DNA of 64,000 nucleotides from Acidimicrobiaceae bacterium (GCA_003151475.1 PLXQ01000018.1:1-64000), one strand, 5' to 3'. Positions 2,791-45,635 are shown, counted from the first letter of the stretch. Notes: a model not told the origin generated them from the letters alone. Made by a program: numbers and translations.

Positions 2791-3582
2791 TTACGTCCCG
2801 GCGAGCAGGGAATCCTCGAACGGCCGCGTCACTTGAGCGCCCACCCGTATGTACCACTCCGTGCCCCACACGGCGGCGAAGGCCTCGGGGGGCATGGACA
2901 AAAAGAACGACGTCTCGGAGATCTGGCTCCCGTGGGCCTCCATGGCCCGGCGTTTCTGGCCGAGGAAGTCGCTCACGTCCACGGCGGTGGTGATCCGTTC
3001 CTCGGCCACCCCCAACGTGTCGACCGACGGTCGCTCGCCCTCGCCACCGAGCACAGCGGCGTTGTCGGGCGAGGCCATCAGCGCCAACAGGTAGTCGCGG
3101 TTGACCGTGGCCATGAAGACCCGGGGCACCTCGGCCAGGACACCGGCGCGCAGTCCCACCCGGTGGACCTGGATGTGGTCGGGATGGCCGTAGTTCCCGT
3201 TCTCGTCGTAGGCGGTGAGGACGTCGGCCCCTTCCTCGCGCAAGATGGCGGCCAGTCGCTCGGCCGCCTCCTCCACGTCGGCCTGCCAGAAGCAGTCGGG
3301 GTCGTTGTTGGTGTCCTCTCCTTCCATCCCCGAATCCCCGTAGCCCAGGTGCTCGTGGCGGGCCACACCGAGCGCGGCGCAGGCGGCGTCGAGCTCGGTG
3401 GCCCGCCGATCGGCCAGGGACTCGCCGGCCGAGAGATAGCCGTCGGGCACCTCACCGAGCTCGCCCCGGGTGGCCGTGATGAGCACGACCCGGTGCCCGG
3501 CCGCCGCCATCTGCGCCATCGTCCCGGCCGTGGCGATGGCCTCGTCGTCGGGATGAGCGTGGAAGAACACGGCAGTGACCAT
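2791..3582 (-). CDS. PIG-L/LmbE family deacetylase (Mca/MshB-like, mycothiol conjugate amidase family)
   Basis: Motifs FHAHPDDE and NGNYGHPDH are typical of LmbE-like zinc deacetylases. Start trimmed to the Met giving MVTAVFFHAHPDDE (ATG at 3582); the upstream part of ORF 2791..3669 has no support. Confidence 0.8.
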   Translation of the reverse strand: MVTAVFFHAHPDDEAIATAGTMAQMAAAGHRVVLITATRGELGEVPDGYLSAGESLADRRATELDAACAALGVARHEHLGYGDSGMEGEDTNNDPDCFWQADVEEAAERLAAILREEGADVLTAYDENGNYGHPDHIQVHRVGLRAGVLAEVPRVFMATVNRDYLLALMASPDNAAVLGGEGERPSVDTLGVAEERITTAVDVSDFLGQKRRAMEAHGSQISETSFFLSMPPEAFAAVWGTEWYIRVGAQVTRPFEDSLLAGT

Positions 3583-3652
3583 GGACGCGGAGACTAATGG
3601 GCCAGGATGGGGCAGGACGACGACGACGGGCGTCCCCCGACGAGGAGGAACA

Positions 3653-4369
3653 ATGGCGACGACGGTCACGGTGGCGACGGCTGACGGCGAGATGGACCTC
3701 TACGACGCCGAGCCCCAGTCGGTGCCCCGGGGGGCGGTCATCGTCGTGCAGGAGGCGTTCGGCGTGAACGACCACATCGAGGACGTCACCCGCCGCTTCG
3801 CCGGCCAGGGCTACCGGGCTGTCGCCCCCCATCTCTTTCACCGCAGCGGCGACGAAGAACTGGCCTACGACAACTTCGAGAAAATCATGCCCCACATGCA
3901 GGCCCTGACCGAGGTCGGGCTCCTGGCCGACCTCGACGCCACTGTGGGCTACCTGTCGGCCGCCGGCTTCGCCGCTCCTCGGGTGGGCGTGGTCGGTTTC
4001 TGCATGGGGGGATCCGTCACCTTCTTGGCTGCTGTCCGCCGTGCCTTCGGAGCAGCCGTCACCTTCTACGGCGGGGGAGTGGCCGAGGGTCGTTTCGGCA
4101 TGCCCCCACTCCTGGAGATGGCGCCCGCGCTCCAGACCCCGTGGCTCGGGCTCTTCGGCGACCAGGACCCGAGCATCCCCGTCGACCAGGTGGAGGCTCT
4201 CCGTCAAGCGGCAGCCACCGCACCGGTGCCGACCGAGATCGTCCGCTATGCCGACGCCGGCCACGGATTTCACTCCGACCCCCGTCCCGACGCCTACAAC
4301 GAGCCGGCGGCCGAAGACGCGTGGGGCCGCACCCTCGACTGGTTCGAGCGCTACCTCGCCGCCGACTGA
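3653..4369 (+). CDS. Dienelactone hydrolase family protein
   Basis: Alpha/beta-hydrolase with Cys nucleophile motif VVGFCMGG and the DLH-like C-terminal pattern YADAGHGF. ATG 3653 is preceded by GAGGAGGAA. Confidence 0.8.
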   Translation: MATTVTVATADGEMDLYDAEPQSVPRGAVIVVQEAFGVNDHIEDVTRRFAGQGYRAVAPHLFHRSGDEELAYDNFEKIMPHMQALTEVGLLADLDATVGYLSAAGFAAPRVGVVGFCMGGSVTFLAAVRRAFGAAVTFYGGGVAEGRFGMPPLLEMAPALQTPWLGLFGDQDPSIPVDQVEALRQAAATAPVPTEIVRYADAGHGFHSDPRPDAYNEPAAEDAWGRTLDWFERYLAAD

Positions 4370-8780: not shown

Positions 8781-11219
8781 ATGCGGAGACGCAGGCGGGG
8801 GACGGCACCGGACGGAGCCAGGGAAGACAACCTTGCCTGGGATCGGGCAGCGGTAAAGCCCCGAACGCTCGGTACCACTCTCCGCAGGCCGCTGTCCGTA
8901 ACGGTCGTCGTCTGGACGATATTGGCGGGTCTTGCGGGGCTGGGACCGTCGGGTACCACCACGGCCTCGGCGCTCTCGTTGACCCCGAATTGGCTGGAAC
9001 TGTCCCCGTCGACAAGCCCGCCAGGGCGGACTTCGGCGTCCATGGCCTATGACCCGGCGACCGGAGACACGGTGCTGTTCGGTGGGGCCGAGATCACGAG
9101 TGGCCCCGCCATCATGCTGTCCGACACCTGGACCTGGGATGGTTCGACCTGGACCGAGCAGTTTCCGTCCGCCAGCCCCCCTGCTCTGTACGGAGCCTCC
9201 CTCGCCTACGACGATGCCACGAACGACCTGGTCCTCTTTGGCGGTCTTTCCGACACCGGCGACATGTCCGAAACCTGGACTTGGAACGGAATCACATGGA
9301 CACAGCAGGTGTCGACTACCACTCCGCCCGTCCCGGTGCCGACGGCGCGTCACTCCGCCGCCATGGCCTACGACCACGTGGCAGGCCAACTGGTTCTGTT
9401 CGGAGGCCTGGATGGCCGGACGATTCTGAACGATACCTGGACATGGAACGGGACCACCTGGACACAGCAGCACCCCGCCACGAAGCCGACGGCACGTTAC
9501 GCCGCCTCCATGGCCTACGACCCAGCGATGGGAAACGCAGTGCTGTTCGGTGGCTATAGCGGCGGACAGACCGGCCTGTCAGACACGTGGACATGGAATG
9601 GAACAACCTGGTCACTGCAGAACCCGGCGATCATCCCCCCCGCTCGCTACGGAGCCTCGATGGCCTACGACCCCCTCCAAAGCGAAATCGTTCTTTTTGG
9701 CGGCTACGACAACGGTGCCAGCGACCTGTCGGATATGTGGACCTGGGATGGCACCAAGTGGGTACCGCGGTCGCCGACCACGAAACCCCCGGCTCGACGT
9801 TTTGCCGCCATGGACTACGACGCGGCGACGGCGAACCTGGTGCTTTTCGGGGGTGATCCGGGCGGTAGCGGCACTCCCGGTTCGCTGGACGACACCTGGA
9901 TTTGGGGATCCGGTGGCGCGTTCACTGATTCGGTCGCCCTCCCGAGCGTCATCCTCGGCGCTACCGACACCGCCACGGCCGCGGTGACCGGAGACGCCGG
10001 AGCTGCGGTCCCGACGGGCACCGTCAGGTTCTATGCCTGCGGCCCGACACCCACTCCGACGTCGTGTGAATCTCAAGCCAACCCTTTGGGCGCTCCGGTC
10101 AGCTTGAGTCCGATATCGAGCGATACCGCCGCAGCCATGTCGTCGGCTTTGAACCCGACGTCTACCGGCTATTGGTGCGTTGCCGCTGACTATTCGGGCG
10201 ACGCCAACTATGCCTTCGGTTCGGATACCACGACCGACGCGTGCTTCTTCGTAGAGCCACCGGTAGTCACCACACCTGCTGTGTCGACGGTCAGCCTCGG
10301 AAGTACCGACAACGACAATGCCACTGTGTTCGGAACGACGGCCGACGGTGCTCCGACGGGCACGGTCTCCTTCTACGATTGCGGTCCGACCGTCGTTCCG
10401 ACCTCCTGTACATCACAGACCAGCCCGGTCGGCGCACCGATCAGCCTGACGCCGGGACCAGGCGACACATCCACGGCGACGTCGCCCGGCTTTACCCCCA
10501 ACGCGCTCGGATATTGGTGCTTTGCCGGCGTGTATTCGGGTGACAGCAACTACGCGCCAGCATCCGACGCAACGACCGAAGAATGCATTCTCGTGACGGC
10601 CGTCTTTTCTTCTGTGTCCACCCTTTCCTCGATCAGTCTTGGGACCTCAGATACGGACGTGGCGACAGCGACCGGCAATGTCGGGTCAGCGACTCCTACG
10701 GGCACCGTCAGTTTCTACGAATGCGGGCCGAGTGCGACCCCTCTACCGTGTACATCAACGGTCAGCTCGATCGGCAGCCCGGTCACTCTGATACAGGGGC
10801 CAGCCAACACCGCCAAAGCGACGTCGCCCGCCTTTACCCCCAACGCAGTGGGCATCTGGTGCTTCGCTGCTGATTATTCTGGCGATGGCAACTACCCGCA
10901 AGGCTCTGACACCACCACCGACCAGTGTTTCAACGTGATTGACACTCTGCCGGCCTTTACGAGCGCCGGCTCGGCATCAGCCACTGCCAAACAGCCCTTC
11001 ACGTTCACCATCACAACGACCGGGTCGCCGACCGTGACAATCGTGAATTCTGGCGCCCGGAAGAAGTGGTTGGTGTTCGCCGACAATCACAACGGAACGG
11101 CCACGATAGATTCCAAAGCCGCGCGCACGGGCAAGCATGTGTTCACCTTCACGGCCACCAACGGTGCCGGTTCGGTCAACCAGACCTTCGTCCTTACGGT
11201 CCGTAAGGCAGGGGGATAG
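8781..11219 (+). CDS. Secreted Kelch-repeat protein with three tandem Ig-like repeats and a C-terminal He_PIG-like domain
   Basis: ATG 8781 preceded by GGGGGGAG; signal/TM LSVTVVVWTILAGLAGLG..ASA. Six Kelch blades (repeated DTWTWDG/NG..W, LFGG motifs). Three ~114-aa repeats each carry TGTVxFYxCGP...YWCFA..YSGDxNY. The C-terminal FTFTITTTGSPTVTIV...NGTATI...FTFTATNGAGSVNQTFVLTV resembles the putative Ig (He_PIG) domain. Confidence 0.8.
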   Translation: MRRRRRGTAPDGAREDNLAWDRAAVKPRTLGTTLRRPLSVTVVVWTILAGLAGLGPSGTTTASALSLTPNWLELSPSTSPPGRTSASMAYDPATGDTVLFGGAEITSGPAIMLSDTWTWDGSTWTEQFPSASPPALYGASLAYDDATNDLVLFGGLSDTGDMSETWTWNGITWTQQVSTTTPPVPVPTARHSAAMAYDHVAGQLVLFGGLDGRTILNDTWTWNGTTWTQQHPATKPTARYAASMAYDPAMGNAVLFGGYSGGQTGLSDTWTWNGTTWSLQNPAIIPPARYGASMAYDPLQSEIVLFGGYDNGASDLSDMWTWDGTKWVPRSPTTKPPARRFAAMDYDAATANLVLFGGDPGGSGTPGSLDDTWIWGSGGAFTDSVALPSVILGATDTATAAVTGDAGAAVPTGTVRFYACGPTPTPTSCESQANPLGAPVSLSPISSDTAAAMSSALNPTSTGYWCVAADYSGDANYAFGSDTTTDACFFVEPPVVTTPAVSTVSLGSTDNDNATVFGTTADGAPTGTVSFYDCGPTVVPTSCTSQTSPVGAPISLTPGPGDTSTATSPGFTPNALGYWCFAGVYSGDSNYAPASDATTEECILVTAVFSSVSTLSSISLGTSDTDVATATGNVGSATPTGTVSFYECGPSATPLPCTSTVSSIGSPVTLIQGPANTAKATSPAFTPNAVGIWCFAADYSGDGNYPQGSDTTTDQCFNVIDTLPAFTSAGSASATAKQPFTFTITTTGSPTVTIVNSGARKKWLVFADNHNGTATIDSKAARTGKHVFTFTATNGAGSVNQTFVLTVRKAGG
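9940..10965 (+). repeat. Three tandem ~342-bp coding repeats (Ig-like domain repeats) inside the Kelch protein gene
   Basis: Repeated protein blocks ...TGTVRFYACGP..., ...TGTVSFYDCGP..., ...TGTVSFYECGP..., each ending in YSGDxNY...SDxTTDxC. The nucleotide similarity is visible, e.g. recurring ctattggtgc / tattcgggcgac segments. Confidence 0.7.
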
Positions 11220-30579: not shown

Positions 30580-30741
30580 GACGGCTTGAATTCTGGCAAC
30601 GCGGTCGTGGGCGTTGAGTCATCTTCCGGTCGTGCCGATCCGTCTGACGGGAGTTGTCGGTCGTCGTGTCATGCCGAGTTAGGCGCACTTGTGCGCTGCT
30701 CCCCAGGGCGACGCGTCGAGTTTTCGACGTTTCCCCCGGAT

Positions 30742-30818
30742 GGTCGGGCTGGCGGGATTTGAACCCGCGACCTCTTGACCCCCAGTCAAGCACGCTAACC
30801 AAGCTGCGCCACAGCCCG
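30742..30818 (-). tRNA. tRNA-Pro (anticodon GGG)
   Basis: Reverse complement reads CGGGCTG-TG-GCGCAGCTTGGTTAGCGTG-CTTGA-CTGGGGG-TCAAG-AGGTC-GCGGGTTCAAATCCCGC-CAGCCCG-A-CCA. This gives a 7-bp acceptor stem, a GTTCAAATC T-loop, a 7-nt anticodon loop with GGG at positions 34-36, and an encoded CCA. Confidence 0.9.
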
Positions 30819-34044: not shown

Positions 34045-35202
34045 GTGGCTGTCCAACGCGTCCTCCTCGCCTCCCCGAGGGGCTTCTGTGCCGGGGTGGA
34101 GAAGGCCATCAAGGCCCTGGCGTGGATGGTCCGGGTCTTCGAGCCGCCCGTCTACTGCTACCACGAGATCGTCCACAACCGTCACGTTGTCGAGCAGTTC
34201 CGCGCCCAGGGGGTCATCTTCGTCGACGACGTGGACGAGGTACCGGCCGGGGCGCCGCTCATGCTCTCGGCCCACGGATCGGCCCCCGAGGTGGTGGCCG
34301 ACGCCCGCCGCCACGACCGCATCGTCGTCGACGCCGTCTGCCCCCTCGTCACCAAGGTCCACCACGAACTCAAGGTCCGCGCCCGCAAGGGCTACACCGT
34401 CCTCTACGTCGGCCACGAGGGCCACGAGGAGGCGGTGGGCACCATGGCCGTCGCCCCTGCCTCGGTCCGCCTGGTCCAATCCGAGCAGGAGGTGGACGAC
34501 GCCCGGGTCGATCCCTCCTCCCCCGTGGCGCTTCTGGCCCAGACCACCCTGAGCCATGACGAGTGGTCGGGCATCATGGCTCGGGCCAAAGAGCGCTTCC
34601 CCGACCTCTGGATGCCGGGCCGTTCCGATCTCTGCTTCGCCACCACCAACCGTCAGGCGGCGCTGAAGGCCATCGCCGGGCGCGCCGATGTCGTCGTCGT
34701 CATCGGCTCGTTCAACTCGTCGAACACCCGGGCCCTCGAGAAAGTGGCCCGGGCCATGGGCTGTCCGCGGGTGCTCCGCATCAACTCGGCCGACGAACTG
34801 CCCGACGACCTCACGGGCACGGTGGCCGTCACCGCCGGCGCGTCCGCCCCCGACGAACTGGTCGAGGCCGTCGTCAAGCGCCTGGCCCCCATCGACGGCA
34901 TGGAGGAGATTCGCGTCACCGACGAGGACGAGTACTTCCCCCCTCCCCCCGAGATGCGCGACCTCCTTGTGGCCCTGGGCGGGGCCCTGGCCCTCGGTCT
35001 CGGCGCGCCGGCCCCGGGGTCAGGACCGGTACCCCGCGCCACTGACCCCACCGGTGACGCTGGCTCTGCCGATAACGCAGGCTCTGCCGATAACGCAGGC
35101 ACTGTCGATGACACGGTGAGCGATCCGGCCGACGACCTCGGGACGCTCTCCCGGGACCGTCACGTCTCGGCCGCCGACGTCCTCGCCCGTCTGGCGGGGT
35201 GA
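34045..35202 (+). CDS. ispH: 4-hydroxy-3-methylbut-2-enyl diphosphate reductase IspH/LytB, with an approximately 65-aa acidic low-complexity C-terminal extension
   Basis: Conserved IspH N-terminus MAVQRVLLASPRGFCAGVEKAI, Cys ligands and the HGSAPEV motif. The tail contains the tandem DAGSADNAGSADNAG. Confidence 0.95.
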   Translation: MAVQRVLLASPRGFCAGVEKAIKALAWMVRVFEPPVYCYHEIVHNRHVVEQFRAQGVIFVDDVDEVPAGAPLMLSAHGSAPEVVADARRHDRIVVDAVCPLVTKVHHELKVRARKGYTVLYVGHEGHEEAVGTMAVAPASVRLVQSEQEVDDARVDPSSPVALLAQTTLSHDEWSGIMARAKERFPDLWMPGRSDLCFATTNRQAALKAIAGRADVVVVIGSFNSSNTRALEKVARAMGCPRVLRINSADELPDDLTGTVAVTAGASAPDELVEAVVKRLAPIDGMEEIRVTDEDEYFPPPPEMRDLLVALGGALALGLGAPAPGSGPVPRATDPTGDAGSADNAGSADNAGTVDDTVSDPADDLGTLSRDRHVSAADVLARLAG

Positions 35203-36734
35203 GCACTGCCCCGGGACCCTCCCCGGTTACTCCCGCCGGCCCGTCGCCCGGTCTCCAGATCAGCAGCACCGCCGGCCGCTGGGTGGTGGCCGTCACCGTC
35301 CTCGGTTCGGCCATCGCCGCCATCGACTCCACCGTGGTGGGAATCGCCCTGCCCGCCATCGGACGCGACTTCTCCCTCTCGGTCTCGAGCCTGCAGTGGG
35401 TGGTGAGCGCCTATCTCCTGGCCCTCGCCGGCCTGCTTCTCGTCGGTGGCGCGCTCGGTGACCGCTTCGGCCGGCGCCGTATCTTCATCATCGGGGTGGT
35501 CTGCTTCGCCGTCACCTCCCTCGTCTGTGCCGTCGCCCCCAATGCCGCCGTCCTGATCGGCGGCCGCGCCCTGCAGGGGGTCGGCGCCGCGCTTCTCACA
35601 CCGGGATCGCTGGCCATCTTGCGGGCCTCGTTCGCCCCCGACGACCAGGGCCGGGCCGTGGGGGCCTGGTCGGGCCTGGGCGGGGTGGCCACGGCCATTG
35701 GTCCGTTCCTCGGAGGATTTCTCATCAGCGCCGTCTCCTGGCGCTTCATCTTCGTCATCAACCTCCCCATCGCCGTCCTCGTCGTCGTCATGGCCGCCCG
35801 CCATGTGCCGGAGACGACAGACCCCGAGGCCTCGGGACGTGTCGACATCCCCGGTGCCGTCCTCGTATCGGGCGGTCTCGTCGGCCTCACCGCCGGCATC
35901 ATCGAGGCGCCGAGCCACGGCTGGGGATCGGCCCCGGTGCTGGGGGCGCTCGTGGGGGGTGTCTGTTTCATCGCCGCCTTCCTGCTCCTCGAGGGTCGGA
36001 CCCGCCATCCCCTTCTGCCGCTCTCCATTTTCCGCTCCGCACAGTTCAGCGCCACCAACGTCGTCACCTTTCTCGTCTACGCCGCGCTCGGCGGGGCGCT
36101 GTTCCTGCTCCCCATCGAACTGGAGCAGGTCTCGCTCTACTCCCCCCTCGAAGCCGGAACATCGTTTTTGCCCCTCACGGCGATGATGCTGGCCTTCTCG
36201 GCGCGTTCGGGGGCGCTCGCCACCCGCATCGGTCCCCGGCTGCAGATGACCGTCGGTCCCCTCCTCGTCGGCGCCGGCATGGTCCTGTTCCGCCTGGTGG
36301 GAGCGGAGGGCAACTACCTGACCGAAGTCCTGCCCGGCATTGTCGTCCTGGGCGCCGGACTGGCTCTCACGGTGGCGCCGCTCACCACCACGGCCATGAG
36401 CTCGGTGGGGCCCGACCACGCCGGCATCGCCTCGGCCGTCAACAACGACGTGGCCCGCGCCGGCAGCCTGGTGGCCGTGGCCGTCCTCCCCGTGGTGGCC
36501 GGGATCACCGGGGCCAGCTACCTGCACCCCCTGGTCTTCTCGGCCGGCTTCCGCACGGCGGTCACCGTGGCCGGGCTGGTGTCGGCCGTCGGCGGACTGC
36601 TCTCGGGCGCCCTGATCAGAAATCCCCCTCCCGCCCCCGCCTCGGAGCCGAGGGCGCCGGGCACGGCCGCCACCTACTGTGCCCTCGAGGCCCCACCCCT
36701 GGCGGCGGCGTCGTCCGGCACGACGCGGGCCTGA
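35199..36734 (+). CDS. MFS transporter, DHA2 (EmrB/QacA) drug:H+ antiporter family, 14 TM
   Basis: Motif GRDFSLSVSSLQWVVSAYLLALAGLLLVGGALGDRFGRRR (MFS motifs A/C). GTGA 4-nt overlap with ispH. Confidence 0.9.
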   Translation: MSTAPGPSPVTPAGPSPGLQISSTAGRWVVAVTVLGSAIAAIDSTVVGIALPAIGRDFSLSVSSLQWVVSAYLLALAGLLLVGGALGDRFGRRRIFIIGVVCFAVTSLVCAVAPNAAVLIGGRALQGVGAALLTPGSLAILRASFAPDDQGRAVGAWSGLGGVATAIGPFLGGFLISAVSWRFIFVINLPIAVLVVVMAARHVPETTDPEASGRVDIPGAVLVSGGLVGLTAGIIEAPSHGWGSAPVLGALVGGVCFIAAFLLLEGRTRHPLLPLSIFRSAQFSATNVVTFLVYAALGGALFLLPIELEQVSLYSPLEAGTSFLPLTAMMLAFSARSGALATRIGPRLQMTVGPLLVGAGMVLFRLVGAEGNYLTEVLPGIVVLGAGLALTVAPLTTTAMSSVGPDHAGIASAVNNDVARAGSLVAVAVLPVVAGITGASYLHPLVFSAGFRTAVTVAGLVSAVGGLLSGALIRNPPPAPASEPRAPGTAATYCALEAPPLAAASSGTTRA

Positions 36735-36743
36735 GGCGCGAGA

Positions 36744-37322
36744 ATGGGCGTCATGAGCACCAAGATCTCCTCCACCATCACTTTTCGTTCCATGGACGAG
36801 TCGACGGCCGAGCAGTGGGCCGTTATCGGCGCCGAGACCTTCGAGCACCAGGGCCGGGTCGCCGACCAGGTCCTGGCCATGCTGGAAGGACTCGGGACCA
36901 TCACCGACGGCTTCGCCGTCGACCAGTTGATGCATTCGCTCCAGACGGCCACCCGGGCCGAGGAGTCCGGTGCCGACCCCGAGATGGTGGTGGCCTCTCT
37001 GTGCCACGACATCGGGAAGTACGTGTCGGTGCCCAACCATCCGCGCATCGCGGCCGAGATCCTGCGGCCCTACGTACGCGACGAGGTGGTCCAGGTCATC
37101 TTGGCCCACCAGGATTTCCAGGGCCGGCACTACTATCACCACTTCGGTGGCGACCCCGACGCGCGCGACAAGTACAGCGCCGAGCCCTGGTTCTCCCTGG
37201 CGGCCACGTTCGCCGACGAGTTCGACCAGAACAGCTTCGACCCGGACTACCCGACGTTGCCGCTGTCGCACTTCGAGCCGCTCGTGCGCGAGGTCTTCGC
37301 CAAGCCCCGCAACATCATCTGA
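36744..37322 (+). CDS. HD-domain metal-dependent phosphohydrolase/oxygenase-family protein
   Basis: HD motif LCHDIGKYV with additional His/Asp ligands (ILAHQDFQGRHYYHHFGGD). Confidence 0.8.
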   Translation: MGVMSTKISSTITFRSMDESTAEQWAVIGAETFEHQGRVADQVLAMLEGLGTITDGFAVDQLMHSLQTATRAEESGADPEMVVASLCHDIGKYVSVPNHPRIAAEILRPYVRDEVVQVILAHQDFQGRHYYHHFGGDPDARDKYSAEPWFSLAATFADEFDQNSFDPDYPTLPLSHFEPLVREVFAKPRNII

Positions 37323-38143
37323 TGGACGTCGCGGTCCTGGCGCCCTTGACGCGCGCCCATGCACGGGAAAAGAGACGCCACGACGATGTCCGGAATCTCG
37401 TCATGGAGCTGGCCCGCAGTGACTTCCGGCGCCGCCACCCCGACGCCACCTTCGGCCCCATCGTCGTCCTCATCGCCTCGTATCTGGAAGCGGACAACAT
37501 CGGGGCGGTCCTGAAGGGTGTTCCCCCCGAAGTGGACGGCCACGCGGTGACCACCTTGGTGGTGGTGGACGGTGGTGACGACGGCACCGAGGACATCGTG
37601 GCCGAGCACGGGGCCTACTGCTGTGTGCTTCCGGTCAACATGGGCCAGGGTGTGGCGCTGAAGCTGGGCTACGAGCTGGCCGACGCCTACGGGGCCGAGT
37701 ACGTGGTCACCCTGGACGCCGACGGCCAGAACGACCCAGCCGAGATAGCCGATCTGCTGGCCCCGGTGCTGGCTGATGAGGCGGACTTCGTCATCGCCAG
37801 CCGCCGGCTCGGCAGTGACCACACCGAAGACGGAGTACGGCGGGCCGGCGTGGTCTTCTTCTCCTTCGTCATCAACGCCTTGGCCGGCCAGCACCTGACT
37901 GACACCTCGAACGGCTTCCGGGCCCTCAAGATCGACGTCCTGCGCGACGTCACCCTCGAGCAGGACCAGTACCAGACGTCGGAGCTCATCATCAGCGCCG
38001 CGGCGCGCGGATGGCGGCTGGGTGAACGCCCCACACTGTGGCACCCCCGGGCATCGGGCGAGTCGAAGAAGGGTTCCAACATCTTCTTTGCTCTGCAGTA
38101 CGCCCGCGTCGTTCTGCGGACCTGGTTGCGCGAGCGGCGCTGA
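37322..38143 (+). CDS. GT2-family glycosyltransferase (polyprenol-phosphate sugar synthase-like, DPM1/CsbB/ArnC type)
   Basis: Internal start of ORF 36815..38143 at ATG 37322 (TGATG overlap with the HD gene). DXD region VTLDADGQND plus conserved GT-A core motifs. Confidence 0.85.
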   Translation: MDVAVLAPLTRAHAREKRRHDDVRNLVMELARSDFRRRHPDATFGPIVVLIASYLEADNIGAVLKGVPPEVDGHAVTTLVVVDGGDDGTEDIVAEHGAYCCVLPVNMGQGVALKLGYELADAYGAEYVVTLDADGQNDPAEIADLLAPVLADEADFVIASRRLGSDHTEDGVRRAGVVFFSFVINALAGQHLTDTSNGFRALKIDVLRDVTLEQDQYQTSELIISAAARGWRLGERPTLWHPRASGESKKGSNIFFALQYARVVLRTWLRERR

Positions 38144-38157
38144 CCCCGCCGTCCCCG

Positions 38158-41001
38158 GTGGACGTTGGCCGGCGAAGACAGGCAGTACGGCGCGCCCCGG
38201 CGCCGCCCGCAGTGAGGCGCGCCCTGGCGCGGCCAGCGGCGCCACTGGCCGCCGTCTTCGCCGCCATCTCGGCCGCCATCTTCGGGCTCCCGGCTGCCTT
38301 CGGCGCCACCTGGCTGGTGGGCGACAACCTCATCCAGAATTTCCCTCTCCGGCTGCTCGTGGGGACCGATCTGCGCCACGGACATCTGCCGTTGTGGGAC
38401 CCCTATCTGTGGAGCGGCTCTCCCCTGCTGGCCGGCTTCAACGCCGGGGCCGCCTATCCCACCACCGTCCTCTTCGCCTTCTTACCCGGGGCTCTCGCCT
38501 GGGTGCTCAACGAGATGGCGGTGGAGGTGGTGGCCGCGCTCGGGGTGGTGGCGCTGCTGCGGGTGCTCGGGCGTTCCTGGCTGGCGTCGGGGCTGGCCGC
38601 CGGGGCCTTCGCCTTCGGCGGCTTCATGACGGCCCAGAGCGTGCACCTCGATCTGGTCCAGGCGGCGGCCTGGCTCCCGTGGGCCTTCGTGGCCCTCGAC
38701 CGCCTGGCCCATCGACCCGACGGCCGGCCGGCCGCCCCGTGGGTTGCTCTTCTCGGCGCCTCGCTCGGTCTCATGATGCTGTCGGGAGCGGTCGAGCCCA
38801 TCTTCGACGGCGGTATCGTCCTCGTCCTTTACGGCGTCTGGCTGGCGGTGCGCACTCCGGGCCGGCGGCGCCTGCACATCGCTATCGGGTCGGCGGCGGG
38901 CGTGGTCGTCGGCGTCGCGGTGGCGGGCGCCCAGCTCATACCGGGAGCGGCCTTCCAGGCCCAGTCGCAGCGGGCCATGCACAGCTTCACGTACTTCTCC
39001 TCCGGTTCCATGAACAAGTCGCTTACCATCCTCGGCCTCGATCCCCTGGTGCTCGGCGGCGCCCACGCCTTTCCCCTGGGCTTCCTCGGCACCTTCAACC
39101 TGCCCGAGATCTCGAGCTACATCGGCATCCTCCCCGTCATGGGCCTCGTCGGCCTCCTGGCCGCCCGTCACCGCCGCGCCCCCGAGGCCGGTCAGTGGTG
39201 GATCTGGTACGGAGTGCTGATCGTGGGTCTCTTCCTGGCCTGGGGCGGATTCACACCGGTGGCCCACCTGATCTACGACATCCCGCTCTTCAACCGCCAA
39301 CGCCTCCTGAACCGCAACCTCCTCGAGGTGGACCTGGCTCTGGCCGTCATCTTCGCCACCTGGGTGGATCAGATGTTCAGACCGGCCCTCGGGGGGGCCC
39401 CGCACCTCGACACGGCGCCCGTGGGCGGGGCCACAGAGCGCCGGTGGACGTCGGACGTCGTCCTTCCTCTCATCCCGGTGGTGGCCGTCATCGGCCTGCA
39501 GATCACGTTGATCGCGGGCGGGCCCTGGTTCCCGCATCTGCTGCATGTGCCCGTCGCCGTGACGCGCTCGGGGCTGTGGCCTCTCATCGGTTTCCTCACC
39601 ATCCCCAGTGCCATCGCCGTCGGAGCCGGCGTCCTCGTCCTGCGGCGGTTCGCCCTCGGCCGCCGGCTCCCCGCGCTCCTGGTGGCGCTGGTGGTCATTG
39701 ACCTGGCCGTGTTCAACCTGGGCATCCAGTCCATCCCCGACCGCTCCGACGCCGTCTCCAGCGCCAGTCCCACCGCTGCTCGCCTGGCCGCGCTCGTGGC
39801 CGCCCAGGGCCAGGGCGCGGCCGGAGGCCGGCACCGGATCGGGATGTTCGACCCCGACCGCTTCCATCCCGTCGAGGCCAACCGGCTGGGCCAACCGGAC
39901 CTCACCATCTTGCGGTCCCTCGACAGCGTGCAGGGCTACGGCGCCGTCGTCGACGAGCACTACGACGCCGAGACGGGAACGCACCTGCAGCTGAACCTCA
40001 CCCCCGCCGCTCTCTCGGGCGACACCTTCGCCCGACTCGACCTCGGTCTGCTCGTGAGCGTGCCCGAGTACTTCATCCATCTGGTGAGCCGGCCACCGAA
40101 CTACGGCGGGAGCGTCCTGAACGGAGCGCCGCTGCTTCCTCCCGTCGGCCCCGATCCGTCGGCGCCCCCCGACCGGGCGCCTGCCGCTCCCACTCCCCCC
40201 GGTGACTACGTCTTCGTGTCGCCGCCGGCACCGACGGCCATGCTCAGCGCCGGCGATCCCCGGACCCAGTACTTCGGCACCGTCCTGTCGGTGACCGCCG
40301 TCACCGTGCCGCTGGCCTCGACCGCTGACACCGGCGACCTGCGGGTCGGCCTGCTCTCGCCCGACGGGGGCCGGACGACGTGGTTGGGCCCGGCCGTTTC
40401 CCTAGCCGGCAAGAGCGAGATCACGGTGGACAGCGCTCCGCAGGCGGCTAGCGGCATCATCCTGCTCTCGACGGCGGCGACGGCGGCGGTGGGTGACGCC
40501 GTGGTGCGCACCGCCGGCCAGGGGACCTACCGGGTCGACGGCTCGCTGCGCGACATCGTGACGGCGCCTCGGTGGCGCTACCTCGGCAACGACGGTGCCT
40601 TCAGCGTCTTCGCCCAACCCTCGGCGCGCGGCCGGGCCTGGGTGACCGGTGACCCGTCGGCCACGGCCCGGGTGGTGTCGGATTCACCGTGGGGCGACGA
40701 GATCATCCGGGTGTCGACGCACCACCAGGGCACCCTCGTCCGCTCCGAGCAGTTCGCCTCGGGCTGGGAGGCCACGATCACGGGGACCACGCCCGGCGCA
40801 GGGTCGTCTCGCAGTGCCGTGGTAAGGCGCAGCGACCTGATCCAGGCGGTGACCGTTCCCGCCGGGGTCCACCTGGTGCACTTCACCTACCGCCCGGCGC
40901 GGGCCTTTGAAGGCCTGGCCGTGAGCGCCGTGGGGGTGATCGTGGTGGGTGTGCTCGGTTTCTGGCCCCTCATCCGCAGGAGGCGGCGCCGGCCGGCTTA
41001 G
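38158..41001 (+). CDS. Large polytopic membrane protein, YfhO-like GT-C-fold glycosyltransferase family
   Basis: Multiple TM helices with the loop motif [25 protein letters not shown] resembling the YfhO family, plus a long C-terminal extracytoplasmic domain. Start set at GTG 38158, just after the GT2 stop; alternatives exist. Confidence 0.65.
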
Positions 41002-42046
41002 CGCTGTTCCTGGCCAGGTCGGCCACGAGCTCATACGAACGCAGCCGATCGTCGTAGCCGTGGATCATGGCCGTGATCATCAGCTCGTCGGCCTGCGTCT
41101 CGTGCACGAGCGTCGCCAACCCGGCGCGGACCGTCTCGGGGCCGCCCACGATCTGACCGCTGGTGCGACCGTCGATGATCAGTTGCTCGGACGGCGAATA
41201 CTCGTGGCCGGCCGCTTCTTCGGGCGTGGGAAGGCGCCCCGGTCGTCCTGAGCGGAGGCGCACGAAGGCCAGGCGCGACGGACCGGCCAACCACTGCGCC
41301 TGCTCGTCGGTCTCGGCGCAGATGACCGACACGGCCACCATGGCGTGCGGCGCCGCCAACGTGGCCGACGGACGGAAGTGCGAGCGGTACAGAGCGAGGG
41401 CGGGCAGGGTGTTGGCGGCGCTGAAGTGGTGGGCGAAGGAGAAGGGCAGGCCGAGCATCCCGGCCAGCTGAGCGCTGAAGCCGCTGGAGCCGAGCAACCA
41501 GATCTCGGGCTCGTCGCCGTAGCCGGGGACGGCCGTGATGGCCCGGAAGGGATGCTTCTCGGGGAAGCCCCCGGCGAAGAAGGCCATCAGCTCACCGAGT
41601 TGTTGGGGAAAGTCGTCGGCGCTCAGTGCGTCGGCCGAACGGCGCAGCGCCAGCGCCGTGATCTGATCGGTGCCCGGGGCGCGTCCGATGCCGAGGTCGA
41701 TACGTCCGCGGTGCAGCGCCTCCAACGTGCCGAACTGCTCGGCCACCACCAGCGGCGCCTGGTTGGGAAGCATGATCCCGCCCGAGCCCACCCGGATGGA
41801 GCTGGTGGCCGAGGCGATGTGTCCCATCAGCACCGCCGTGGCCGAGCTGGCGATGCCGGGCATGTTGTGATGCTCGGCCACCCAGAAGCGCCGGTAGCCG
41901 AGGCCCTCGACCGCTACCGCCAGGGCGATGGACTGCTCCAGGGCACGGCCCACATCGGAACCGTCGGCCACCACGGCCAGGTCGAGCACCGACAGAGGCA
42001 CCGCCGGTGGCGTCGCATCGTCGCTCTCCAGCATGAGTGCATCCAT
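40970..42046 (-). CDS. LLM-class flavin-dependent oxidoreductase
   Basis: Luciferase-like motifs ([24 protein letters not shown]). Convergent with the previous gene, overlapping by 32 nt. Confidence 0.85.
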
Positions 42047-42108: not shown

Positions 42109-43917
42109 CTAGGGGGCGGTGGGCCCATCGCCCGGCGCTGCGGTGTCACTCTCGCCCTGCCACGATCGCCACAGGGCGGCGTAGGCGCCCGAGGCGGCGA
42201 GCAGGTCATCGTGACTGCCGAACTCGGTGATCCGGCCCTCCTCCACGACGGCGATGACATCGGCGTCGTTGGCCGTGTGCAAGCGGTGGGAGACGGCGAT
42301 GACGGTCCGGCCCTCGAGCAGTCGGGCCAGTGACCGCTCCAGATGGCGGGCCGCTCCGGGATTGAGAAGCGAGGTCGCTTCGTCGAGCACCAGGGTGTGG
42401 GGGTCGGCCAGGACCAGGCGGGCGATGGCGATCTGCTGGGCCATGCCCGGGGCCAGGATCGATCCGGCCGAACCGACGCGGGTACCGAGTCCTTCGGGCA
42501 ACGCCCGTACGGCGGCGCCGGCATCGACGGCGTCGAGCGCGCCGTAGAGCTCCTCGTCACTGGCGTCGGGGTCCACCAGCCGCAGGTTGTCGCGGATCGA
42601 GGCGGCGAAGAGGTGGTGCTCCTGGGTGACGAGAGCGACATGGCGGCGCAAGCGGGCCGGCGGCATCAGGTGGGCGTCGACGCCGCCGACGGTGGCCCGG
42701 CCCGAGCGCGGGGCAAAGACGCCGGTGAGGAGAAGCGCCAGGGTGCTCTTGCCCGCCCCGCTCGGGCCCACCACCGCCACCCGGGCGCCGGGGGTGGTCT
42801 CCAGGTCGACGCCGCGCAGGACGTCGTGGTCGGCGCTGTAGGCGTAGTGCAGGTCCCGGGCCACCACCTGCTCGCCCACCGGTTCGTCGGTCGTGGTCGG
42901 CGCCGGTTCGACCTCGTGGACGCCGACGACCCGCGATAAAGAGGCCGAGGCCACCTGCACTTCGTCCATCCACGCCAGCAGCGTGTCGACGGGGTTGATC
43001 AACTGCTGCGCGTACAGGGCGGCGGCGGTGACCGCCCCCACCGAGAGGTGGCCGTCGATGTGCAGAAGCCCTCCGAGCAGGATGGTTCCGACGAGGGGGA
43101 TGACGTAGCTGATCTCGCTGGCGCCGAAGAAGACGGTCCTCAGTCCGAGGGTCTTTCGTTCCCAGCCGATCCAGGACCTGATGTCACGGTCGGTCTGCGT
43201 GATCCGTTTCGATCCGAGCCGGAAGGCCTCGATCGTGCGTCCCGCCGCCACGCTCTCTTGGATATCGCCGTTCACCCGGGCGTAGGCCGCCATCTCCCCC
43301 TGATAGGCACCGCGGGCCCGGCGCAGATACCACCGGGTACCGGCGGCCACGATGGGAATGCTCGGCACAAGCGCCAGGCCGAGCACGGGGGCGGTCCACA
43401 GCAGAGCGGCCACGGCCAGCACGGCCGTGACACTGGCCACCAACAGCTGCGGGAGCCCCGTGCGCACGGTGTAGGAGAGGTCGTCCACGTCGGTCGACGC
43501 CCTGGTCAGCAGGTCGCCCGAACCGGCCCGCTCGACGACGCCCAAGGGCAGGTCGAGGACCCGTTTGACCAGTTGCTCGCGCAGGCGGGCCAGGATGCTC
43601 TCACCGAGAACGGCGCCCAGCCCGCGGCTGGCCCCGGTGAGCACGGTCTGGAGCACCAGGGCGCCGGCGAAGATGACGATGGCCTCCTCGATGCGGGCGT
43701 TGCCGCCTTTTGCCGTCGTGTTGTTGATCACGCCCTCGAGGACCTTCGGGCCGACCAGCCCGGCGGCACTGGCCACCGCTTGCAGCGCCAGCACGACGGC
43801 GATGGGCCGACGCTGCTCATGGAGCAGCCGCCGCACGTGGCGCCAGCTGGCCCGGCCCGATGCCACGGGCAAGATGGTCGACTCGGCGCCGGACACGGTG
43901 GTCGGCGGCGTGCTCAT
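42109..43917 (-). CDS. ABC transporter ATP-binding/permease protein (exporter half, CydC/D-like)
   Basis: True start is ATG 43917 (MSTPPTTV...), an ATGA overlap with the upstream partner. The 262-aa Arg-rich N-terminal extension in ORF 42109..44703 is a frame artefact. Six-TM domain plus NBD ([14 protein letters not shown]-like, Walker B DEATS). Confidence 0.9.
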
Positions 43918-45635
43918 CGGTCGCCCCGCGTGACGAGCCGGCGGTAGCGGGGCTCGGAGTCGAGCAGCTGCCGGTGGCTGCCCACGGCGCGGACACGGCC
44001 GTCGAGGAAGGCCACGACGTCGGCCTGCTCCAAGAGAAAGGGGCTCGTCGACAGCACCACCGTGGTCCGGCCTTGGCGCACCCGGCGCAGCCGGCCGGCG
44101 ATGTCGGCTTCGGTGTGGGCGTCCACGGCGCTCGTGGGTTCGTCCAGGACGAGCACCTCGGGGTCGGCCCGCAAGGCGGCGGCGAGGACGATCCGCTGTC
44201 GCTGGCCACCGGAAAGCGAGCGCCCGCGTTCGGGGAGCTCCGTCTCGAGCCCGTCGGCCAGGTCGGCGACGATGGCGCCGGCGACGGCGGCGTCGAGGGC
44301 TTCGGTCACGGTGGGCCGGTGGGCGCCGGCGTGGGGACGGAACTCGGGCATGTCGACGGCGTCGGCCACCGAGCCCGAGAGCAGCTGTGGCTCTCGGTCG
44401 ACCACCAGCACCCGGCCCCGCACCACGTCGAGGGGTAGGGCGGCGAGCGCCGTGCCGGCCAAGGCCACGCCGTCTCCGGGGGTGTCGACGTAGCGACCGA
44501 GGCGGGCGCCCAGCATGCTCGCCTCCTCGGGGTCGGTGGCGGCCACCACGGTCAGCAGGCCGGGCTCGACCACCAACCCCGTGACGGTGTCGGTCAGCGC
44601 CCCCACCGGAGGCTCCGTCACGGCCGCCACCGGGCGCGGCAGGTCCGGTGTCCGGCGCAGGACGGTCAGGACCCTTCCGGCCGCCACCGTGGCCGCCGAC
44701 CATCGGGTGGCCGCTTCGATCAGGGTCTGGACGGGCAGGGTCAAGAAGGCGGCGTAGGCGTAGAAGGCGACCAACCGGCCGGGCGAGATGGTGTGGGTGA
44801 GCACCAGATGGGCGCCGATGTAGGTGACGACGACGAGGATGGCCCCGGGCACGAAAACCTGGAGCGCATCGAGCAGGGACTGGGTGAGAGCGGTGCGGAC
44901 GGTGGCGGCGCGTACCTGCTGTGAGGCAGCTGCGTAGCGATGGCCGAAGACCTCCTCACCGCCGAGACCGCGCAGGACGCGCAGGCCGACCACGGTGTCG
45001 GCCGCCACCGACGACGCTGCGGCCCGGGCCGAGCGCTCGGCTTTCTGCCGGCGCTCGAGTGGTCGCATGATGGGCAGGATCAGAGAGACGGCGACCGGCG
45101 CCCCGATCACGAGGACGAGACCGAGGCGGACCGACGAAGAGAACAGCAGGACGGCCACCACCAGATACGACACCACGGCGCCGGTGGCGCGGGCACTCAC
45201 GTCGAGCAGGTGGCCGATCCGCTGCACGTCGGTGGTCCCGATGCTCGCCACCTCACCGGCGTCCACATGACGGGTCAGGTCGCCGCCCAGATCGCTTGCC
45301 TGACGCGCCACCAGCTGTTGCACCCGGACGGCGGCGGTGAGGAAGTTGGTGACGGCCCGGCGGTGACGGAGCACCCCGGCCACGGCCTGGACGGCACCGA
45401 GGCCGAGCACGACGGCGGACCAGGCCCACAATTGGCCCCGGTCACGGCGGCTCACGGCATCGATGGCGGCGCCGAGCGCGGCGGGGATCAGACTCTGGGC
45501 CCCCATCCAGACGGCGCCGAAGAACCCGCCGCCGATGACGGTGCCGAGCTGACGCCGCGCCAGCCAGAAGAGGAAGTGCACGGGCGAGCGGGTGTCGGGC
45601 TCACCGAGATCGGCCAGGGGGAGTCGAGTAAGCAA
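43914..45635 (-). CDS. ABC transporter ATP-binding/permease protein (exporter half, CydD/C-like)
   Basis: TMD plus NBD with LSGGQRQRIVLAAAL and VLVLDEPTSAVD. TTG start at 45635 (alternative GTG at 45581). Confidence 0.9.
   Translation of the reverse strand: MLTRLPLADLGEPDTRSPVHFLFWLARRQLGTVIGGGFFGAVWMGAQSLIPAALGAAIDAVSRRDRGQLWAWSAVVLGLGAVQAVAGVLRHRRAVTNFLTAAVRVQQLVARQASDLGGDLTRHVDAGEVASIGTTDVQRIGHLLDVSARATGAVVSYLVVAVLLFSSSVRLGLVLVIGAPVAVSLILPIMRPLERRQKAERSARAAASSVAADTVVGLRVLRGLGGEEVFGHRYAAASQQVRAATVRTALTQSLLDALQVFVPGAILVVVTYIGAHLVLTHTISPGRLVAFYAYAAFLTLPVQTLIEAATRWSAATVAAGRVLTVLRRTPDLPRPVAAVTEPPVGALTDTVTGLVVEPGLLTVVAATDPEEASMLGARLGRYVDTPGDGVALAGTALAALPLDVVRGRVLVVDREPQLLSGSVADAVDMPEFRPHAGAHRPTVTEALDAAVAGAIVADLADGLETELPERGRSLSGGQRQRIVLAAALRADPEVLVLDEPTSAVDAHTEADIAGRLRRVRQGRTTVVLSTSPFLLEQADVVAFLDGRVRAVGSHRQLLDSEPRYRRLVTRGDR

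Follow-up and report, generated by a model that had tools for sequence, protein, structure and literature searches.

A predicted YfhO-type glycosyltransferase pair for envelope glycosylation in a conserved ispH neighbourhood of Acidimicrobiales

The stretch of DNA analysed here in its full length of 64,000 nucleotides (the window) belongs to an Acidimicrobiales (Actinomycetota) metagenome scaffold (GCA_003151475.1, PLXQ01000018.1:1-64000), its assignment to this order being based on homologues. Its GC content of 0.67-0.73 fits the high-GC actinobacterium named in a preliminary description of the locus. Positions 34045-41001 hold five open reading frames (ORFs), all on the + strand and at the coordinates that had been assigned to them: ispH, a transporter of the DHA2 group of the major facilitator superfamily (MFS), an HD-domain protein, a family 2 glycosyltransferase (GT2) and a membrane protein of 947 aa with a predicted GT-C fold (Table 1). 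We consider it likely that the products of the last two genes constitute a two-step, lipid-carrier-dependent module for envelope glycosylation, of the type represented by CsbB/YfhO, ArnC/ArnT and PpgS/Rv3779.

The stop codon of ispH (TGA, 35200-35202) overlaps the GTG start of the MFS gene at 35199 (GTGA, 35199-35202), and that of the HD gene (TGA, 37320-37322) overlaps the ATG of the GT2 gene at 37322 (TGATG, 37320-37324). Both overlaps had been described correctly, while the two remaining junctions, given before as gaps of 10-15 nt, measure 9 nt (MFS stop 36732-36734, HD ATG 36744) and 14 nt (GT2 stop 38141-38143, GTG 38158). Public gene calls of an identical large protein place its start at GTG 38212, which gives 929 aa and a gap to the GT2 gene of 68 nt. 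Upstream of ispH there are a divergent DUF512 radical-SAM-like gene and der, and downstream a convergent luciferase-like monooxygenase gene (40970-42046, - strand), the 3' end of which overlaps that of the GT-C gene by 32 bp (40970-41001), so that the same-strand run consists of exactly five genes. The same gene order was found again in dozens of species-level genomes, and the arrangement therefore exceeds what chance would produce.

The large membrane protein gave nothing above threshold in Pfam and NCBIfam scans; a profile of 34 homologues had no match among PDB sequences even at E <= 10, and a tblastn comparison with annotated plasmids found nothing. The AlphaFold2 (AF2) model built on the alignment of the same 34 homologues (pLDDT 78.7, pTM 0.80) has a membrane core made of helices (aa 17-523), then a domain rich in beta structure (aa 524-913) and lastly one more transmembrane (TM) helix (aa 914-943), that is, 12 + 1 TM helices flanked by Arg-rich N- and C-termini and with a loop of ~390 aa between the last two. 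When this model was compared with the PDB by Foldseek, all six matches with E <= 0.001 were GT-C proteins and, as far as the model goes, the closest solved fold is that of AftD, the mycobacterial arabinofuranosyltransferase. The outer domain has the appearance of one or more CBM32 / F5-8 type C-like sandwiches (Foldseek probability 1.00 to CBM32 modules), and is a candidate acceptor-glycan binding domain. By BLASTP, the protein aligned over ~900 aa with two proteins carrying precomputed PF09586 (YfhO) matches, P0314 (E 2e-105, 32% identity) and P0441 (E 4e-109, 34% identity), and its Sulfobacillus orthologue appears in UniRef as 'YfhO family protein'. Judged by this full-length homology, it belongs to a divergent branch of YfhO proteins, which is mostly missed by current models.

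Two features of the GT-C superfamily are present in the large protein, namely the multi-pass core with the GT-C fold and, in the first loop outside the membrane, conserved acidic residue(s). In the signature that follows the first TM helix (Table 1), N57, Q60, N61, P63 and R65 are invariant throughout the alignment, and D56 is kept in 31 of the 34 sequences; Asp71 is present in 33 of them. Among the wider family members that carry the motif the Asp is found in 164 out of 168 (98%). By analogy with the placement of the catalytic acid in GT-C enzymes, Asp56 is a candidate catalytic residue. The earlier characterization of this gene product as a YfhO-like GT-C protein of ~950 aa, rather than a non-GT-C transporter or a DUF devoid of catalytic Asp motifs, is thus in agreement with its fold, its topology and its 32-34% identity over the full length to PF09586 bearers. 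Profile matches to the family amount to 2,428 clusters (at 50% identity) with E <= 1e-30 and to 18,276 with E <= 1e-10. In almost every database these proteins are annotated as 'hypothetical protein' without a Pfam domain, and they can now be given a predicted function class, that of YfhO-type GT-C transferases with a carbohydrate-binding outer domain.

The GT2 protein matched PF00535 with 57.8 bits (cut-off 23.3). Its best NCBIfam matches were PpgS (1.7e-22), a haloarchaeal Dol-P-hexose transferase (3.2e-21), AglJ (5.3e-19) and ArnC (3.5e-6), none of which reached the equivalog cut-off (79.9 bits of 370, 75.3 of 375, 68.7 of 325 and 26.3 of 529, respectively). Every named match at E <= 1e-5 was nevertheless of the polyprenyl- or dolichyl-phosphate glycosyltransferase type, and this uniformity supports the polyprenyl-phosphate GT2 class despite the missed equivalogs; the label of polyprenol-phosphate sugar synthase-like enzyme given to it before stands, these being its only significant named relatives. 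ArnC is also its only relative with a solved structure, as found by a search of PDB sequences. A DXD-type motif is present (D132-A-D134; DAD, aa 132-134). No TM helix was found in the GT2 (maximum hydropathy 1.49, no window >1.5), and in this feature it resembles the PpgS/Ppm1-D2 subtype, the enzymes of which are not known to have TM helices themselves. They are paired with separate membrane partners (Rv3632, Ppm1/D1) (PMC3485146). From its family resemblance, we infer that the GT2 makes the lipid-linked sugar donor.

Table 1. Features of the five-gene run, with positions in the window.
Feature	Coordinates	Strand	Details and basis
ispH, 4-hydroxy-3-methylbut-2-enyl diphosphate reductase, 385 aa	34045..35202	+	PF02401, TIGR00216, cysteines
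18-bp tandem repeat (2.9 copies) in the acidic linker of IspH, translated as repeats of GSADNA	35057..35109	+	Tandem Repeats Finder score 85, 91% matches
DHA2-family MFS transporter, 511 aa, about 12-14 TM helices	35199..36734	+	TIGR00711
PhnZ/TmpB-like HD-domain protein, 192 aa	36744..37322	+	PF01966, PDB profile, Foldseek, ligand set
GT2 (GT-A fold) polyprenyl-phosphate glycosyltransferase-like enzyme, 273 aa	37322..38143	+	PF00535, NCBIfam, PDB sequences
YfhO-type GT-C-fold membrane glycosyltransferase, predicted	38158..41001	+	947 aa from GTG 38158 or 929 aa from GTG 38212; model, Foldseek, homology
Signature D-N-x-x-Q-N-x-P-x-R (aa 56-65) after TM helix 1, outer face	38323..38352	+	Alignment; position from model
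Extracytoplasmic domain, ~390 aa (aa 524-913), between 12th and last TM helix	39727..40896	+	Model, Foldseek
C-terminal TM helix (aa 914-943), then Arg-rich cytoplasmic tail	40897..40986	+	Model helix; hydropathy segment 914-941; end RRRRRRPA

Taken together, homology and modelling indicate that the locus works like CsbB/YfhO(/GtcA), PpgS/Rv3632/Rv3779 and ArnC/ArnT, with the GT-C protein placed in the YfhO family by transitive homology and topology; that such a pair is a known architecture for extracytoplasmic glycosylation, as had been pointed out, is supported by the comparison. CsbB/YfhO, with GtcA as flippase, adds N-acetylglucosamine to lipoteichoic acid in Bacillus subtilis and Staphylococcus aureus and to wall teichoic acid in Listeria monocytogenes (PMC5836110, PMC8035078), and the YfhO of B. 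subtilis has 13 TM helices with a loop of 389 aa between the last two (PMC5836110). The window shares with this system a GT2 gene directly upstream of the large GT-C gene, a GT-C protein with the same number of TM helices and an extracytoplasmic loop of nearly the same length at the same place (PMC5836110), full-length homology to PF09586-bearing proteins, and an outer domain predicted to bind carbohydrates (PMC8035078). It differs in that the GT-C protein falls under the Pfam YfhO threshold (gathering score of PF09586, 28.5 bits), the GT2 has no TM helices, there is no GtcA/GtrA gene in the window, the GT2 gene is preceded by a PhnZ-like HD gene in translational coupling with it, and the host is an Acidimicrobiales bacterium. 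We know of no description of teichoic acids in this order. The TM-less GT2, the lack of a local GtrA, the coupled PhnZ-like HD gene and the phylogenetic setting are also what sets the locus apart from the known systems in general.

The second system, PpgS (Rv3631)/Rv3632/Rv3779 of Mycobacterium tuberculosis, puts galactosamine on arabinogalactan, its GT-C using polyprenyl-phosphate-N-acetylgalactosamine (PMC3485146). It is likewise actinobacterial, the window GT2 has PpgS as its best match in NCBIfam, and the GT-C decorates a wall polysaccharide from a polyprenyl-phosphate donor (PMC3485146). However, the GT2 scores far under the PpgS cut-off, there is no Rv3632-like small membrane partner beside it, the M. 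tuberculosis genes are non-adjacent by their locus numbers, and Rv3779-type families were not retrieved by the window protein from Pfam or NCBIfam. ArnC/ArnT (synthesis of undecaprenyl-phosphate-linked 4-deoxy-4-formamido-arabinose, Und-P-Ara4FN, and aminoarabinosylation of lipid A) shares the two-step logic, besides the sequence kinship of ArnC to the GT2. ArnT, in contrast, has neither a large outer domain with a carbohydrate-binding module nor a terminal TM helix, and no ArnA/B/D-type genes are present at the window locus. As for AftD, it is also a large GT-C protein with extracytoplasmic carbohydrate-binding domains (PMC8035078), although its sequence similarity to the window GT-C is undetectable and the order and size of its domains are different. 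The donor of AftD is decaprenyl-phospho-arabinose, which is made by a different route (UbiA/DprE).

The conservation of the locus was examined by tblastn with the window proteins in 80 species-level loci, out of 462 matches in GTDB genomes. The gene order of the window recurs among them. In close relatives (>50% identity), der and DUF512 point away from ispH, which is followed on the opposite strand by the MFS gene (when present), HD, GT2 and GT-C. In relatives at 35-39% identity the ispH-HD-GT2 series is intact, and the GT-C gene is found ~7.5 kb off in convergent orientation, beyond a housekeeping block containing trpS, scpAB, rluB, tyrA, aroA, cmk and plsC. Overall, the GT2 and GT-C genes are adjacent in 33 of the 80 loci and within ~8 kb of each other in 32 more. 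Outside the order, the GT2 gene lies immediately upstream of the GT-C gene, without ispH or HD, in Sulfobacillus and in three metagenome-assembled genomes (MAGs) of lower GC labelled Actinomycetes/Acidimicrobiales, with GT2 orthologues at 45-48% identity in Sulfobacillus and the low-GC Actinomycetes MAGs. From this distribution, the GT2 and the GT-C are the portable functional core, encountered in sugar-nucleotide and flippase contexts, and the coupling of HD to GT2 is a feature of Acidimicrobiales. The five genes had been presented as one unit; as such they are not conserved, since the MFS gene is missing in about one third of the close relatives, the GT2 gene in six and the HD gene in three.

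A special coupling of the module to ispH, the last enzyme of isoprenoid precursor synthesis, had also been proposed and is not supported. The adjacency of ispH to the pair is confined to Acidimicrobiales, der and DUF512 are as conserved beside the module as ispH is, the gap between ispH and HD is about 85-100 nt in relatives without the MFS gene, and where the pair is found elsewhere ispH does not accompany it. For these reasons the adjacency of ispH is best read as inherited gene order, with no demonstrable pathway link, within a conserved core-genome block (der - DUF512 - ispH - ... - plsC - cmk - aroA - tyrA - scpBA - trpS), and ispH is probably outside the glycosylation module in functional terms.

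The MFS protein, of the 14-TM type, is a typical member of its family (TIGR00711, 265.8 bits against a cut-off of 230.2; DHA2, EmrB-type). About a dozen close relatives do not have it at the orthologous position (L001/L028, L014, L017, L019, L023, L024, L025, L027, L029, L062 and L069, in the numbering of our loci), and the comparison indicates that it is an accessory gene, a late, lineage-specific insertion between ispH and HD. It was considered as the dedicated flippase and discarded as a core component, its presence among relatives being patchy. The same data bear on a more ambitious scheme, in which all five genes form one pathway where IspH boosts the supply of carrier lipid, the MFS protein acts as flippase for the lipid-linked sugar, the HD protein works on a phosphate or on that sugar, the GT2 loads the carrier and the GT-C carries out the transfer. 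The genes are indeed on one strand with overlapping or near-abutting junctions, ispH, HD and GT2 stay together in both Acidimicrobiales arrangements even when the GT-C gene is ~7.5 kb away, and there is precedent for an MFS protein that flips a glycolipid, the LtaA of S. aureus. However, we find this scheme improbable, given the patchiness of a transporter of the common drug-efflux type, an ispH linkage no tighter than that of der/DUF512 and loosened to ~85-100 nt from HD where the MFS gene is missing, the existence of the pair in Sulfobacillus and other lineages with none of ispH, HD and MFS beside it, and the housekeeping nature of ispH in the methylerythritol phosphate (MEP) pathway.

The HD protein deserves a separate comment. 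The HD domain named before was confirmed (PF01966, 9.2e-8; NCBIfam scores were far under their cut-offs), but the generic label has to be corrected. In a profile search of the PDB its only sequence relatives were PhnZ (2.5e-10) and TmpB (1.5e-5), and the top 10 Foldseek matches of its AF2 model (pLDDT 86) were all PhnZ/TmpB over the full length (TM-score 0.56-0.71, E 5e-6 to 8e-5), the next HD protein coming at E ~0.1, i.e., after a 1000-fold gap in E-value. The likeness to PhnZ itself (TM-score 0.67-0.71, at 23-24% identity for PhnZ/TmpB) extends to the complete set of dimetal ligands (H64, H88-D89, H99, H122 and D161), residues that are invariant even in proteobacterial homologues of 40% identity. 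This H...HD...H...H...D set binds the diiron cofactor in MIOX, PhnZ and TmpB (PMC8177086). There are also two differences: where PhnZ/TmpB have their YxxE substrate loop, the aligned positions read T54-D-G-F57, which indicates that the substrate is not that of these enzymes, and no partner iron/2-oxoglutarate (Fe/2OG) hydroxylase is found at the window locus, unlike in the 40%-identical proteobacterial homologues. Some of the latter are on plasmids, of Pseudomonas aeruginosa (L084, NZ_CP115240.1) and Tistrella (L083, pTM2), with TauD/TfdA dioxygenases and genes for choline/ABC uptake beside them or close by; these dioxygenase neighbours resemble the catabolic pairs PhnY/PhnZ and TmpA/TmpB, and support an oxygenase-type family. 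Oxygenase and hydrolase activity in HD proteins cannot be told apart from sequence (PMC8177086), and it is as a prediction from homology and model that we regard this protein as PhnZ/TmpB-like, of the diiron-oxygenase type rather than a generic phosphohydrolase.

The overlap of stop and start codons in the window, and the fact that HD and GT2 are kept together across Acidimicrobiales, suggest that the HD protein probably has a role associated with the GT2. A more specific proposal would give it a working place in the glycosylation module: as a diiron oxygenase, for instance, it might modify the sugar, the lipid-linked donor or a substituent of the phosphonate/sulfonate type ahead of transfer, or else it might act on an isoprenoid intermediate like 4-hydroxy-3-methylbut-2-enyl diphosphate (HMBPP). 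This seems doubtful to us. If it were true, it would have no precedent among GT-A/GT-C systems, and both the stop/start overlap of HD with GT2 and the persistence of ispH-HD-GT2 in two genome arrangements of Acidimicrobiales would reflect function and not history; with an HMBPP-like substrate, IspH would be functionally tied to the use of the carrier lipid. A PhnZ-like HD protein translationally coupled to a polyprenyl-phosphate glycosyltransferase is the question that we would single out from this locus.

From the folds, topology, motifs, homology and linkage computed here we infer the donor, the direction of transfer, the acceptor and the catalytic residue of the GT2/GT-C module, which would operate as follows. 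The GT2, soluble or peripheral, would, to judge by its family resemblance, load polyprenyl phosphate with a sugar taken from a nucleotide sugar on the inner side of the membrane; a flippase for the lipid-linked sugar, which could not be recognised in the window, would act next; finally, the GT-C-fold enzyme, with its 13 modelled TM helices, would pass the sugar to an extracytoplasmic acceptor. A polyprenyl-phosphate-linked donor is indirectly supported by the linkage to the GT2 and by the context of some relatives. One member of the GT-C family (P0375, 1000 aa) has a C-terminal GtrA/DPMS domain (residues 856-948; PF04138, 29.4 bits against a cut-off of 26.1) and is a fusion of a GT-C enzyme with a putative flippase of lipid-linked sugars. 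In Sulfobacillus thermotolerans Kr1 (L061:7807-13352; also L060 and L064) the GT2 and GT-C genes are preceded by one for a PF03706 (LPG_synthase_TM, flippase-like) membrane protein, similar to the flippase domain of MprF, and accompanied by a convergent GalE/RmlB-like epimerase gene. The PF03706 protein has no counterpart in the Acidimicrobiales loci. This Firmicute, with its compact version of the module, is a cultivable entry point to the system. Acidimicrobiia, most of them uncultured, abound in soil, peat and acidic habitats, and to our knowledge their envelope chemistry is largely uncharacterised.

With regard to the sugar, a conserved GalE/RmlB-like short-chain dehydrogenase/reductase of ~300 aa accompanies the pair outside the order. 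In one locus (L082:7728-8978) the pair is immediately preceded by a gene with a match to UDP-sulfoquinovose synthase (NF041015, E 3.7e-141, 470 bits against a cut-off of 575), and a gene 69% identical to it occupies the same place in another (L034:8001-9179); there are hints, then, that in these two lineages the module may transfer sulfoquinovose by way of a lipid carrier. In one Actinomycetes MAG (L029:8580-9929, - strand) a GT87-family gene, of the type of polyprenol-phosphate-mannose-dependent mannosyltransferases, is located between GT2 and GT-C. Neither the epimerase nor the UDP-sulfoquinovose-synthase-like genes of the distant relatives have a homologue in the window, so that they are uninformative about the sugar used there, and for the donor one would most simply assume a common nucleotide sugar.

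The acceptor would most likely be a glycan polymer, because of the CBM32-like folds in the ~390-aa outer domain. Alternatively, the GT-C could glycosylate proteins, in the manner of a PMT O-mannosyltransferase or an AglB/PglB oligosaccharyltransferase, and not a wall polymer or lipoglycan. Actinobacteria do possess protein O-mannosylation, by Ppm1 plus Pmt. We nonetheless regard this as rather unlikely, as the outer domain resembles CBM32 / F5-8 type C modules, neither the Pfam scan nor the PDB profile search detected a PMT or STT3 signature in the large protein, and the characterised members of the YfhO family act on teichoic acids (PMC5836110, PMC8035078).

Several observations weigh against a lipid-carrier-dependent GT2/GT-C module of the YfhO type. 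The PF09586 model gave no YfhO match to the window protein at E <= 0.01, and in 16 of its 34 relatives it matched only below threshold and over short stretches (best E-value 1.7e-5); DUF6044 behaved similarly, with short, sub-threshold matches in 31 of the 34. A GtrA-type flippase, left in the preliminary description as something to be looked for, is not encoded in the 64-kb window, nor was one found in the 80 loci (the P0375 GtrA domain served as tblastn query, short ORFs with several TM segments were sought by hydropathy, and the two candidates were scanned with Pfam). The C-terminal TM helices of the GtrB/ArnC subtype, which both GtrB and ArnC possess, are missing from the window GT2. Co-transcription of the five genes is suggested by their overlaps; scans for sigma-70 promoters (0 predicted) and intrinsic terminators (1 terminator-like site, inside the GT2 gene, against 2.4 expected) are uninformative in such high-GC DNA.

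Glycosyltransferase activity, moreover, is a prediction from homology and modelling for any member of this GT-C branch, and Asp56 is replaced by Ser in 3 of the 34 aligned relatives. Both facts could also be accommodated if the large protein had the GT-C fold and were no glycosyltransferase, acting as a transporter or as a non-catalytic scaffold like PIG-U/GAB1 of the glycosylphosphatidylinositol (GPI) transamidase. We believe this to be very improbable in view of the strong conservation of the motif after the first TM helix, with its 98% of Asp, and of the repeated association with a GT2 of the polyprenyl-phosphate type, with nucleotide-sugar enzymes and with flippase-like domains.

There remain six close relatives (L005, L007, L011, L012, L015 and L026) that have no GT2 gene within 10 kb. 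In these, ispH-MFS-HD is followed directly by the GT-C gene, with HD abutting it (at about 9300-10100 in the loci with full flanks), and the GT2 is accordingly not an obligatory neighbour of the GT-C. It could be argued that the two are not a dedicated pair at all, the GT2 (with HD) serving another pathway and the donor of the GT-C being made elsewhere, as would also be compatible with the 35-39% identity group, where the GT-C gene is ~7.5 kb off and convergent to ispH-HD-GT2, and with L. monocytogenes, where csbB (lmo2550) and yfhO (lmo1079) are at separate loci (PMC8035078). On the other hand, a GT2 of 45-48% identity is immediately upstream of the GT-C in organisms as distant as Sulfobacillus and the low-GC Actinomycetes MAGs, and even the separated genes share one neighbourhood of ~10 kb, so that we hold this alternative to be unlikely and prefer the dedicated GT2/GT-C module.

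IspH itself is well supported (PF02401, 4.3e-78; TIGR00216, 270.8 bits against a cut-off of 187.85) and keeps the three cysteines of the [4Fe-4S] cluster (Cys15, Cys99 and Cys197). Beyond the standard IspH models it has a C-terminal extension (aa ~307-385, 34963-35199) that was taken as unusual in the preliminary description, together with an 18-bp repeat. The repeat is real and was detected by Tandem Repeats Finder (Table 1); the extension, by contrast, is typical of the lineage, being found in every Acidimicrobiales IspH orthologue examined (L001, L003-L080), and we have dropped it as a notable feature. It is made of a conserved hydrophobic segment rich in A/G/L, a variable acidic/Pro-rich linker and a terminal motif that is again conserved (DRxxSAADVLARLAG). 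The linkers of the orthologues are shorter and non-repetitive, and it is by the tandem repeat in its linker that the window tail is 10-40 aa longer. With a hydropathy of 1.62 the hydrophobic segment is borderline for a membrane helix, and the extension might tether the enzyme to the membrane or to a partner.

Some other features of the window and its relatives can be mentioned. The luciferase-like monooxygenase gene and the ABC transporter genes that follow it (42109-45635) are missing at this position in L001, and therefore look like an insertion into the conserved backbone. The sole RNA gene detected in the window (Rfam, ARAGORN) is a tRNA-Pro (GGG) at 30741-30818 on the - strand. About 30 kb upstream of the module there is a gene for a deacetylase of the PIG-L family (GlcNAc-PI de-N-acetylase / MshB-like; 2791-3669, - strand), which may be relevant to glycoconjugate or mycothiol-type metabolism. 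Finally, one of the relatives (L005:12923-14932) has 3' of the GT-C gene and on the same strand a gene for a 669-aa NHL-repeat protein (Teneurin NHL / NHL repeats) that could be secreted or located at the cell surface.

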